IMG/VR virus record: IMGVR_UViG_2728369553_000007
Source: a virus
Lineage: Duplodnaviria; Heunggongvirae; Uroviricota; Caudoviricetes
Reading direction: 5' to 3' (one strand)
Length of the DNA stretch: 6,190 nt
A program made the position numbers and the translations under genes. Numbering within the stretch: the stretch's first letter is position 1; each line of letters starts with the position of its first letter. Under the pieces are notes generated by a model. That model saw only the letters and a program-made list of their open reading frames with translations. It was not told where the DNA came from and ran no database searches. Below, piece by piece: positions 3,784 to 5,397 of the stretch.

Positions 3784-4338
3784 ATGCTTATTGGCTATGT
3801 ACGCGTATCAACAAATGACCAGAACACCGATCTACAACGTAATGCGTTGAACTGTGTAGGATGTGAACTGATTTTTGAAGACAAGATAAGCGGTACGAAG
3901 TCCGAAAGGCCCGGACTGAAAAAACTGCTCAGGACATTATCGGCAGGTGACACTCTGGTTGTCTGGAAGCTGGACAGGTTAGGGCGCAGTATGCGGCATC
4001 TTGTTACGCTGATAGAAGAGTTGCGCCAGCGTGGCGTGAATTTCCGAAGCCTGACTGACAGTATTGATACCAGTACCCCAATGGGCCGTTTCTTTTTTCA
4101 TGTCATGGGTGCCCTGGCTGAAATGGAACGAGAACTGATTGTTGAACGAACAAAAGCTGGACTGGAAGCTGCTCGCGCACAGGGACGAATTGGTGGACGT
4201 CGTCCCAAACTTACACCAGAACAATGGGCGCAGGCCGGGCGATTAATTGCATCAGGCGTTCCTCGCCAGAAGGTGGCGATCATCTATGATGTTGGTATAT
4301 CGACACTGTATAAGAAGTTTCCGGTCGGAGATAAATGA
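3784..4338 (+). CDS. pinE: Serine site-specific DNA invertase (Pin/Gin/Hin/Cin family resolvase-invertase)
   Basis: 184-aa product starting MLIGYVRVSTNDQNTDLQRNAL..., with the catalytic serine in the VRVST motif and a C-terminal HTH region (GRRPKLTPEQW...IYDVGISTLYKK), closely matching the Pin/Gin/Hin invertases. GGGAGA at 3771-3776 lies 7 nt before the ATG at 3784. The ORF-track start at 3748 is rejected in favour of the canonical start. The right crossover site lies about 45 bp upstream. Confidence 0.92.
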   Translation: MLIGYVRVSTNDQNTDLQRNALNCVGCELIFEDKISGTKSERPGLKKLLRTLSAGDTLVVWKLDRLGRSMRHLVTLIEELRQRGVNFRSLTDSIDTSTPMGRFFFHVMGALAEMERELIVERTKAGLEAARAQGRIGGRRPKLTPEQWAQAGRLIASGVPRQKVAIIYDVGISTLYKKFPVGDK

Positions 4339-4376
4339 AACCGTAGCACGTCGTATGCAAGAAGATCGTGCTGCGG
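4322..4376. repeat. Direct repeat copy A: last codons of pin plus a downstream hairpin
   Basis: cggtcggagataaatgaaaccgtagcacgtcgtatgcaagaagatcgtgctgcgg. Includes a 13-bp stem (aaaccgtagcacg / cgtgctgcggttt, one G-T pair) around a 16-nt loop. A gapped by-eye alignment with copy B at 5348-5397 shares the blocks ggtcgg, gaaacc, gtagc, acgtc, tatgcaagaa and cgtgct in the same order. Confidence 0.6.
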
Positions 4377-4379
4377 TTT
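4341..4379. terminator. Possible bidirectional terminator hairpin between convergent pin and the GIY-YIG gene
   Basis: 13-bp stem with 16-nt loop centred in the 60-bp gap between the pin stop (4336-4338) and the GIY-YIG stop (4399-4401). Followed on the plus strand only by a weak T-containing tract (ggtttatgcttat), so intrinsic terminator function is uncertain. Confidence 0.3.
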
Positions 4380-4398
4380 ATGCTTATCACTTAAAGAC

Positions 4399-5172
4399 TC
4401 AAAAATTAGGTGAGTAACGGACCGGGGACATAGCTCCTTTTTTTCTTAATTCATCTGGTATTTTTTTTCCAAGATAAAGATTTGCTATTTCAGGTGGGGC
4501 TTCTCGACCTTCAAAACCATAGCGAGAACTTTGTGTTGCCTCAAAGTCCGGATCCTCGTCCCAGTATTTCATCGTAGGGAAATTTTCACGTGTTGATTTG
4601 AGCCATTTATCAGCAATGAAAACCCCTCGAACGATCCCCCTTACAGTAGCAAGAATGACTTCTGCTTGGCTGGCGCGAGAGACATTAATGCGCCAGCTAA
4701 ATCGAACCGCATCATAAAGCTCTGAATCCTTTGCACTTCTGTTAACGGAAATCATTAATGCTTTATGATGAAATGTTATGGTTTCGGGTTGATATGTTGC
4801 TATCAACTCTTTGACATGCGCGGCGCCGAATTCATTGCTGCCAGCACCATTCATGATATTCGTTAACCCAGGGTAGGCATCAATAAGTGCTGCTTCAACT
4901 TCGTACGCCGTCTTTTCATCAGTCATTCCATGTCGATGGATGACATGGATAACTTCAAGTCCCGCTAATCTTATTTCTCTAATTTGCTTTAGCTTGTTGC
5001 TCAGTAACTCGTCATCATCAGTCGCTGCCACTTCACCGCGCATATGGGCAAATACGCGGTTACCTTTGCCTTTCCCTACATAGAAGGTGCTTCCGTCCCT
5101 CGGATCAATCAATCGGTATACATACCAGCCAAGGTGTTCAATTACTCCAGAAGGAAACTCAGTAATATCCAT
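4399..5172 (-). CDS. GIY-YIG nuclease-domain protein of unknown function (N-terminal GIY-YIG catalytic domain plus ~150-aa uncharacterised C-terminal domain), occupying the slot held by mcrA in E. coli K-12 e14
   Basis: Minus-strand ORF. From the ATG at 5170-5172 the product is 257 aa: [47 protein letters not shown].... This contains the GIY motif (WYVYRL), the YIG motif (FYVGKG), then Arg and His (NRVFAH), a downstream glutamate (YEVEAAL) and an asparagine (TNIMNG), in the order and spacing of GIY-YIG nucleases (UvrC, I-TevI, Eco29kI). The protein has no cysteine and no HNH or zinc motif, so it is not McrA. The ORF-track start is a TTG at 5223; ATG 5172 is preferred because a promoter-like element overlaps 5205-5233, but no clear Shine-Dalgarno precedes either start. 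The gene is visibly more AT-rich than the tail genes. Confidence 0.7.
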
Positions 5173-5204
5173 TTTGCAATATCTATGAATTATTTGTGAG
5201 ACGT

Positions 5205-5233
5205 ATATTAATGAACATTGCAAGGGCTCACAA
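5205..5233 (-). promoter_or_regulatory. Candidate sigma70 promoter for the GIY-YIG gene
   Basis: On the minus strand: TTGTGA (plus 5228-5233), 17-bp spacer, TAATAT (plus 5205-5210), about 35 nt upstream of the ATG at 5172. Pattern match only. Confidence 0.25.
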
Positions 5234-5347
5234 CTAGTAGTGTTGAGAAATCCATCGGGAAAATGAGGCTAACCCTTTGAATTTACATAGCGCAAAAAGA
5301 TACCTTTCCTCATAATGTGAGCTAATTTTATGTTTCGTTTGATGATC

Positions 5348-5397
5348 GGGTCGGTCTCGAAACCCGTAGCCACGTCATATGCAAGAACGTGCTACGA
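5348..5397. repeat. Direct repeat copy B: degenerate copy of the pin 3' end and hairpin, on the far side of the GIY-YIG gene
   Basis: gggtcggtctcgaaacccgtagccacgtcatatgcaagaacgtgctacga. Same orientation as copy A, about 1.03 kb away. Retains a shorter stem (gtagc-acg / cgtgctac) and the conserved loop core tatgcaagaa. Confidence 0.55.

Follow-up and report, generated by a model that had tools for sequence, protein, structure and literature searches.

How did a defence gene come to lie between two direct copies of one short hairpin, immediately behind a DNA invertase gene? We considered this question for a stretch of 6,190 nt (IMG/VR record IMGVR_UViG_2728369553_000007; below, the window), which covers the tail end of an e14-like prophage and matches the record of E. 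coli ECONIH4 at 100% identity. The gene in question, predicted to encode the restriction endonuclease PD-T4-3 (also called CMoRE), forms with its upstream region a cassette that follows the invertase gene pinE (below, pin). We call the hairpin next to pin copy A and the one on the far side of the cassette copy B; all coordinates are collected in Table 1. On balance we think that this hairpin is probably a transcript-boundary element under selection and has probably also served as a short patch for the homologous exchange of cassettes.

The direct repeat and its hairpin

The best local alignment between the two sides of the cassette pairs positions 4337-4375 with 5359-5396; 34 of 39 columns match (87% identity), with three small indels. 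Its score of 43 should be compared with 13.3 ± 2.2 (maximum 27) in 2000 shuffles, i.e. it is higher by ~14 standard deviations (SD), and this alignment is the top non-self match within the window. The similarity is thus beyond chance, and the direct repeat reported in a preliminary description of the locus is real. The length given there, ~50 bp with the last codons of pin included, has to be reduced to ~39 bp. The left edge of the repeat falls inside the pin stop codon (TGA, 4336-4338); between the last codons of pin and the corresponding stretch before copy B (4322-4336 versus ~5345-5358) only TC(C/G)GGTCGG is common, with a score of 13 that was matched by 24% of shuffles (P ~ 0.24). No similarity was found between the right flanks of the two window hairpins, and extension of the repeat into the flanks of the hairpins of phage lambda was not significant. 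The loop core ATGCAAGAA, described earlier as conserved, is indeed common to both copies (4355-4363 and 5379-5387).

That two AT-rich or palindromic stretches should match by chance is favoured only by the shortness of the repeat. Given a score ~14 SD above that of shuffles, and with both copies reaching 56-59 bits in a covariance model that otherwise comprises sequences from unrelated loci, we regard this explanation as already refuted and its probability as negligible.

Both copies had been described as containing a hairpin. For copy A the predicted fold is strong (-26 kcal/mol, z = -5.5), while copy B folds more weakly (plus strand, z = -1.2; minus strand, z = -1.7). In the covariance model of the hairpin, built from 13 copies, copy A scored 55.9 bits and copy B 59.4 bits. 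Searches with this model gave one or two copies per locus, in an orientation that is constant relative to the tail-fibre genes. The stem has 10-12 bp, mostly G:C, the nominal loop 13-16 nt, and the whole hairpin measures 34-40 nt.

Among 32 distinct copies 94% of the cells are paired and five of the 12 stem pairs are altered on both sides; none of 500 shuffles matched the observed values. Independent compensatory changes were seen in HK633 (A:T to C:G), in the K-12 copy located between ykgJ and ecpE (two pairs) and in lambda copy 1 (C:G to A:T). The hairpin is a selected structure, with the pairing of its stem kept by compensatory changes. Identity to the consensus is 0.92 in the loop, 0.95 in the stem and 0.47 at the bulged base, values that come from a sample partly chosen by loop sequence.

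A scan of the window against Rfam (both strands, E ≤ 1) gave a sole match, in which copy A resembled the hairpin at the 3′ end of CssrB, with E 0.075 and 24.5 bits against a gathering score of 76. Neither three Shigella loci nor class I loci gave a match at the gathering score to CssrB, a small RNA (sRNA) family of Shigella, and we take the match of copy A as a weak lead only. A REP/RAYT-like reading of the hairpin was considered and rejected.

Filled and empty sites

We observed empty sites in EC11, 19SZHZ886Rt, QDFD216 and B1S11. The order there is pin stop codon, a single hairpin and then block 1, i.e. the first part of the conserved non-coding element that in the window lies to the right of copy B. 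In EC11 and 19SZHZ886Rt the sequence past the single hairpin is the same as that past copy B of the window. A composite query representing the deleted state was matched in one piece by the near-isogenic empty sites of QDFD216 (98.5%) and B1S11 (96.6%), and the latter is followed by WP_001333214.1, the same downstream gene as in the window.

Copies of the cassette in other contexts are 96.5-98% identical. We saw four left flanks: pin (in the window, O157:H7 and others), a tail-fibre-assembly remnant in a lambdoid prophage (locus L009), the region beyond an acyltransferase cargo gene (L010) and a hypothetical open reading frame (ORF; L008), the latter locus being a deletion derivative with its endpoint at the first base of the hairpin. 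The right flanks are of three kinds, namely block 1, a cytosine methyltransferase with a type II endonuclease, and a gene for an AraC-family regulator. Homology of these contexts always stops within the hairpin, and the BLAST edges of cassette-only matches fall at 4337/4338 and 5369/5373. The empty sites, together with the other contexts in which homology ends in the hairpin, bear out the earlier proposal that the repeats delimit a ~1.0-kb exchangeable module after the invertase gene. It had been allowed that copy B might be merely a conserved sequence unrelated to cargo; copy B is widely conserved, yet this conserved sequence is tied to cargo boundaries.

The arms of the hairpin help to place the junctions. 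The cassette-specific stretch runs from the right arm of the left hairpin (CGTGCTGCGGTTTATGC...) to the left arm of the right hairpin (...GGTCTCGAAA(A/C)CCGTAG), and what lies outside is context-specific. The right arm linked to the cassette is invariably CTGCGG, while the left arm varies with context. The single hairpin of QDFD216 (CCGTAGCCACG...CGTGCTACGA) has a T:A pair at the position where in copy A the resident-type T4344 faces the cassette-linked G4373, a T·G mismatch. In the lambdoid context the filled locus L009 has the same left arm as its empty relative L004 (C:G pair). The arms show that copy A is a hybrid, its left arm being resident and its right arm incoming, with the recombination junction within the hairpin; this hybrid structure places the left crossover between 4344 and 4373. 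Copy B carries the T5367:A5394 pair variant and differs from the QDFD216 hairpin in one loop base (A5377 versus G). It is the resident copy, continuous with block 1.

The protein encoded in the cassette matches PADLOC PD-T4-3 over residues 1-256 of 257 (E 2.4e-140) and, over its full length, a protein of E. coli O157:H7 with PDB entry 9U75 (E 3.7e-172); its N-terminal part matches the Pfam LEM-3-like GIY-YIG domain (PF22945). By these similarities it is identified as PD-T4-3/CMoRE, a single-protein type IV GIY-YIG restriction endonuclease. CMoRE cuts DNA modified with 5-hydroxymethylcytosine (5hmC) or glucosyl-5hmC and defends against T-even phages (PMC12923530). The cassette interior is present at ≥90% identity in 853 of 5426 complete E. 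coli genomes. Copy A stands 22 nt beyond the stop codon of the PD-T4-3 gene (minus strand) and directly after the stop codon of pin (plus strand). In a consensus scan no promoter of this gene reached the threshold; the 186 nt upstream of it (5173-5358) presumably hold one. The slot after pinE is occupied by McrA (HNH) in the e14 prophage of K-12 (L012, pinE-mcrA-icdC) and by CMoRE/PD-T4-3 (GIY-YIG) in the window, two unrelated modification-dependent type IV enzymes.

Distribution of the hairpin and its other cargo

A second copy of the hairpin was present in 36 of the 80 IMG/VR loci with a canonical hairpin, in direct orientation in all of them. Between the two copies we found a S-adenosylmethionine-dependent methyltransferase with a 3′ fragment of a tail-fibre-assembly gene (27 loci, spacing 1049), ea47 (5 loci, spacing 1589), PD-T4-3 along with a methyltransferase and a restriction endonuclease (3 loci, spacing 4170) and a protein of 517 aa (1 locus, spacing 2055). 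In lambda the copies that bracket ea47 are at 22,573-22,606, right after tfa, and at 24,162-24,195, before ea31; ea47 itself has no Pfam or PADLOC family match. In the window and in lambda nothing but the hairpin is duplicated. The duplicated stretch amounts to 182 bp (89% identical), including the 3′ end of the tail-fibre-assembly gene, for the methyltransferase cassette and to 196 bp, including block 1, for the cassette with the 517-aa protein, so that its length ranges from 35 to 196 bp across cassettes.

Target-site duplication, offered earlier as one origin of the repeat, was rejected: the two copies in the window, 39 bp long, are 87% identical and differ by indels, the duplicated length varies between cassettes as just described, and the single ORF of the cassette encodes a restriction nuclease. 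Nor do we retain the link to pin and to sequences of the pin 3′-end. The codons of pin are not significantly repeated, and the hairpin is more often found after tail-fibre-assembly genes in phages devoid of an invertase, lambda included; in 33 of the 80 IMG/VR loci a tail-fibre-assembly gene ends ≤80 nt before it, and in 19 of them pin does.

With a 102-bp query made of hairpin and block 1 (5359-5460) we obtained 13,999 matches in 5384 of the 5426 complete E. coli genomes (99%), with a median of 2 and up to 9 copies per genome. The pair is present in phages lambda, HK97, HK633 and phi458 and in many Stx phages; K-12 has one copy in Rac (1,434,726-1,434,769) and another in Qin (1,632,527-1,632,570), and a diverged remnant lies in its ykgJ-ecpE interval. 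A dinI-like gene adjoins the right side of hairpin/block 1 in 23 of the 80 IMG/VR loci. Block 1 is nearly universal, and block 2 is common to pin-type loci, lambda and some other copies. In lambda the element occurs with the hairpin at 24,162-24,340, and in the empty loci the element directly follows the stop codon of pin. These comparisons identify the element at 5398-5546 as the putative right-hand homology anchor.

Block 1 is either unannotated or annotated by PGAP as a ‘capsid protein’ pseudogene; indels of 1 nt and 4 nt between copies speak against coding, and this reading was rejected. The Rfam scan of the window gave no match to block 1. On the minus strand RNAalifold found a weak second helix with a covariation term of +0.77, i.e. 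essentially no covariation. In many lambdoid prophages block 1 adjoins the 3′ end of dinI-like genes. It could be a candidate RNA of the 3′-untranslated-region type on the minus strand.

Right after hairpin B, at 5401-5408, the window has GCTGGTGA, one base short of Chi (GCTGGTGG). This near-Chi octamer is kept at that position in most copies seen, lambda included, though a 7-of-8 match may be due to chance; no true Chi was found at this position among the copies examined.

The diverged K-12 remnant consists of hairpin, block 1 and the 3′ part of a dinI-like gene (L168 8213-8420; K-12 304,212 to ~304,420, ykgJ-ecpE). The record of HK633 names its hairpin/block 1 region (L014 2487-2593) ‘attP’ on the basis of similarity to the ykgJ-ecpE region of K-12. 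This similarity may merely reflect a shared prophage remnant, and the annotation deserves checking.

A search of contigs outside Escherichia and Shigella gave only matches to lambda DNA with 99-100% identity, except for one 274-bp match at 89% (L151). The lambda-identical contigs (L137, L140, L141, L143, L144, L146, L147, L152, L155, L158-L167) are labelled Pseudomonas, Shewanella, Chromatium, Streptomyces, Enterococcus, Vibrio, Paenibacillus and others, and several are whole, ~48.4-48.5 kb. With such identity to lambda they are assembly contamination, and we rejected a wider taxonomic range. High-score matches to Rfam IS009, a candidate sRNA, fall inside the coding sequence of tail-fibre-assembly genes of lambda and related prophages (L006 966-1164, lambda L013 1655-1853 and L138 6243-6436); because of this location IS009 may model coding sequence.

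Table 1. Features of the 6,190-nt window
Feature	Position	Strand	Remarks
Baseplate J gene	12-893		
YmfQ-like gene	884-1399		
Tail-fibre gene	1500-2123		3′ part inside the Pin-invertible segment
Two tail-fibre-assembly genes and alternative fibre end	2123-3757		also in the Pin-invertible segment
pinE, serine DNA invertase	3784-4338	+	Pfam Resolvase (2.6e-52) and HTH_7; RefSeq pinE in ECONIH4; left neighbour of the cassette slot
Hairpin copy A	4337-4376	+	stem 4341-4350 : 4367-4376; loop 4351-4366; repeat unit 4337-4375
Exchangeable cassette interior	4377-5358	-	PD-T4-3 gene and 186 nt upstream (5173-5358)
Predicted PD-T4-3 / CMoRE GIY-YIG gene	4399-5172	-	
Hairpin copy B	5359-5397	+	stem 5365-5369 and 5371-5374 : 5388-5396; C5370 bulged
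Conserved non-coding element right of copy B	5398-5546	+	block 1 5398-5460; block 2 5461 to ~5546
Small ORF, next rightward cargo gene	5677-6096	+	139 aa; WP_001333214.1

The crossover sites of Pin are TCTCCGAAAACC TT GGTTTGGGAGAA at 1777-1802 and TTCTCCCAAACC AA CGTTTATGAAAA at 3706-3731, in inverted orientation. The invertible segment between them, of 1.9 kb, holds variable tail-fibre ends and the two tail-fibre-assembly genes; in the gene order of ECONIH4 this segment is flipped relative to the window, the sequence being otherwise 100% identical. The hairpin was also considered as a pix site and rejected. Such a site is expected to have 26 bp, with two inverted half-sites of 12 bp (TTnTnnnAAACC) and a 2-bp core, while the hairpin has only AAACC ... 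GGTTT ~30 nt apart and occurs also in phages with no invertase. Masked runs of N at 1336-1366 (in the YmfQ-like gene) and at 3079-3136 (in one of the tail-fibre-assembly genes) appear as X in the ORF translations. The product of the small ORF at the right has no Pfam or PADLOC match; its N-terminus, MKYCYLIILSLTISSAQA, resembles a signal peptide by eye only.

Role of the hairpin, rival explanations and known systems

If the hairpin has the two roles that we consider probable, it would mark the end of the late tail-fibre/invertase genes and the start of variable, mostly leftward-transcribed cargo in lambdoid and e14-like prophages, acting there as a transcript-end or insulating element. Copy A would then end the PD-T4-3 transcript and probably that of pin, and copy B would stop leftward transcription arriving from the right. 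Both flanks of copy A are rich in T (plus strand, TTTATGCTT; minus strand, TTTCATTT), and neither flank of copy B is; with such flanks, copy A may terminate transcription in both directions. As in intrinsic terminators the stem is G+C-rich, with a strong predicted fold in copy A.

As to the exchange, it would proceed by homologous recombination on a short, slightly diverged patch, which could be the hairpin alone, the hairpin with block 1 or the hairpin with the end of the upstream gene. RecA could be responsible or, more likely, phage annealases of the Red-beta/RecT type, because phage Rad52-like recombinases are known to join short, diverged homologies, with a minimum of ~30 bp for Red-beta, and to build lambdoid mosaics (PMC3945230). 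A cassette bringing its own hairpin would leave one hairpin on each side, and selection would keep both hairpins while the rest of the duplicated flank decays. The duplicated length is variable and thus argues for recombination between related genomes rather than for an enzyme acting at a fixed site. The repeat would then be a scar of cassette exchange as well as a substrate for it, and there would be no transposition footprint. The idea of an exchange scar, put forward in the preliminary description, can be kept in this form, as an exchangeable module with junctions in the hairpin; target-site duplication and an origin from pin 3′-ends have to be given up. The first two-hairpin arrangement would most likely have appeared via an unequal or illegitimate join, followed by decay of all but the selected hairpin.

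Several observations weigh against this reading. Among 33 distinct copies the 5′ flank was A-rich, giving the minus strand a T-run, in only 16 and the 3′ flank T-rich in only 10, and both lambda copies lack a clear T-run. The consensus terminator scan does not call the hairpins, whose loop of 13-16 nt is unlike that of a textbook intrinsic terminator (3-8 nt, with a U-tract right behind the stem). The counts of G·T and A·C pairs, 8 versus 4, show an asymmetry that does not tell which strand folds. The terminator role, like the recombination pathway, is inferred. With 35-40 bp, the patch only just reaches the length that homologous recombination needs. The loop equals the stem in conservation, something that exchange driven by homology alone does not require, and homologous recombination alone does not explain the origin of the first two-hairpin arrangement. 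Finally, a covariance-model search found no hairpin copy in the pinE-mcrA slot of K-12 e14; the slot can be filled otherwise, and cargo after pin is not always bounded by the hairpin.

The last observation fits an explanation by illegitimate joining beside the end of the late operon, in which hairpins would be kept on both sides only as terminator or insulator, other duplicated sequence having decayed. The variable duplications, the 182-bp one with its tail-fibre-assembly fragment among them, do resemble unequal or illegitimate joins between related genomes, and the covariation means selection on the hairpin itself. What such joining leaves unexplained is the switch from context to cassette within the same 30 nt in four left-flank contexts, as well as the matched hybrid arms; it more likely describes the origin of the first two-hairpin arrangement than the later spread of cassettes, and we find this explanation unlikely. 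Junctions lying in the hairpin, with copy A a hybrid of left and right, would be expected if the hairpin were a dedicated structure-specific recombination site (attC-like or HUH/Y1-like), at which an enzyme cuts and joins in the folded hairpin and regenerates one hairpin on each side. Such a site would also suit the direct orientation of all copies, the restriction of the repeat to the hairpin (with dissimilar flanks) in the window and lambda, the covarying stem with its conserved loop, and the bulged base. Still, no recombinase co-occurs with the hairpin: no invertase lies near the copies of lambda, and the window has only Pin, whose sites lie elsewhere and look different. Other duplications reach 140 bp to the left into the tail-fibre-assembly gene or 150 bp to the right into block 1, the signatures of attC are absent, there are no arrays and no more than two good copies per locus, and the conservation of the loop is partly a sampling effect. 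A dedicated site of this kind appears quite improbable to us.

We are just as doubtful about the hairpin being a structure- and loop-specific exchange site that is recognised by a host or phage factor or gains an advantage from folding as a single strand when annealases recombine DNA at the replication fork. If it were true, the region after the tail-fibre genes of lambdoid and e14-like phages would be a small integron-like system by which phage families with no flanking genes in common swap defence genes, with the b region of lambda (ea47) as an example. One could also speculate that the GIY-YIG nuclease is a free-standing homing endonuclease that cuts the empty hairpin site of competing prophages and gets copied into it by repair, or that Pin inserted the cassette at a pseudo-pix site. 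Homing endonucleases do occur among GIY-YIG enzymes, the filled/empty polymorphism at a fixed site looks like homing, the base of the hairpin (GAAACC...GGTTTATG) is loosely like split pix half-sites, and GTTTATG is common with pixR. However, PD-T4-3/CMoRE cleaves modified DNA and is no site-specific homing enzyme; the same flanks are found on cassettes with no recognisable nuclease (methyltransferase; lambda ea47); lambda, where the hairpin brackets ea47, has no invertase; and the real pix sites, contiguous and of 26 bp, are those on both sides of the invertible segment. This reading is largely refuted, and its chance of being correct is very small.

Among known systems the attC sites of integrons share with the hairpin an imperfect inverted repeat, a bulged base, direct orientation at cassette boundaries and junctions inside the site. 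They differ in length (57-141 nt versus 34-40 nt), in the GTTRRRY / RYYYAAC core and in their use of IntI; around the hairpin there is no such core, no IntI integrase and no long arrays, and the duplicated length is variable. The hairpin was examined as an attC site and rejected: it is followed by GTTTATG (copy A) or by GTTGGCT / GCTGGCT (other copies), none of which fits GTTRRRY, and the window has no integrase gene.

A literature search, in which older lambda papers (e.g. the 1983 annotated sequence) were thinly covered, found no earlier description of the hairpin element, of its duplication around cargo or of the hybrid-stem crossover. These three, the duplication around ea47 of lambda included, are apparently new, though a prior description may exist. 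CMoRE, morons, boundary sequences and prophage defence hotspots are already known; our finding extends them and introduces no new principle.

Modular evolution of lambdoid phages was reportedly treated early on by Susskind and Botstein and by Clark et al. (HK620). The moron of lambdoid phages (Juhala, Hendrix) is an extra gene, with its own promoter and terminator, between conserved genes. The cassette resembles a moron in being a single accessory gene opposite to the late operon, with a hairpin right downstream, present or absent between near-identical neighbours; presence and absence were observed here and the hairpin is 22 nt past the stop codon, while the promoter scan gave none at threshold. 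In contrast to independent moron terminators, the hairpins found downstream of the various cargo genes share homology with one another and with the resident hairpin.

The boundary sequences, or ‘homologous recombination (HR) traces’, of lambdoid modules (De Paepe et al. 2014, PMC3945230) are likewise short conserved stretches between exchangeable modules, with mosaic breakpoints located there, and the exchange is ascribed to phage annealases that carry out homologous recombination between short, diverged sequences. Like them, the hairpin is conserved between dissimilar phages at module junctions, and mosaic breakpoints coincide with it. What differs is that we deal here with a single covarying hairpin of 35-40 bp, duplicated on both sides of a cassette, for which the junction can be placed via the hybrid stem. 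For annotators the hairpin is a simple mark of where cargo slots begin and end, and the position of lambda ea47 between two copies makes the idea directly testable.

Prophage defence hotspots of P2 and P4 (Rousset et al. 2022, PMC9122126; Vassallo et al. 2022, PMC9519451; PMC13586616) also present a fixed slot with alternative anti-phage systems. As alternative systems we saw PD-T4-3, a restriction-modification pair, McrA (K-12 e14) and, rightward of the element, SMODS/SLATT. The P2/P4 hotspots are defined by flanking core genes, whereas the boundary here is a non-coding hairpin common to lambdoid siphoviruses and to e14-like prophages with Mu-type tails. According to the 2026 survey of the P2/P4 hotspots, homologous recombination would need homologous flanking genes, which are lacking in unrelated elements, and the route was left unresolved (PMC13586616). 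A portable non-coding homology such as the hairpin would link phage types that have no common flanking genes, and thereby bears on this gap.

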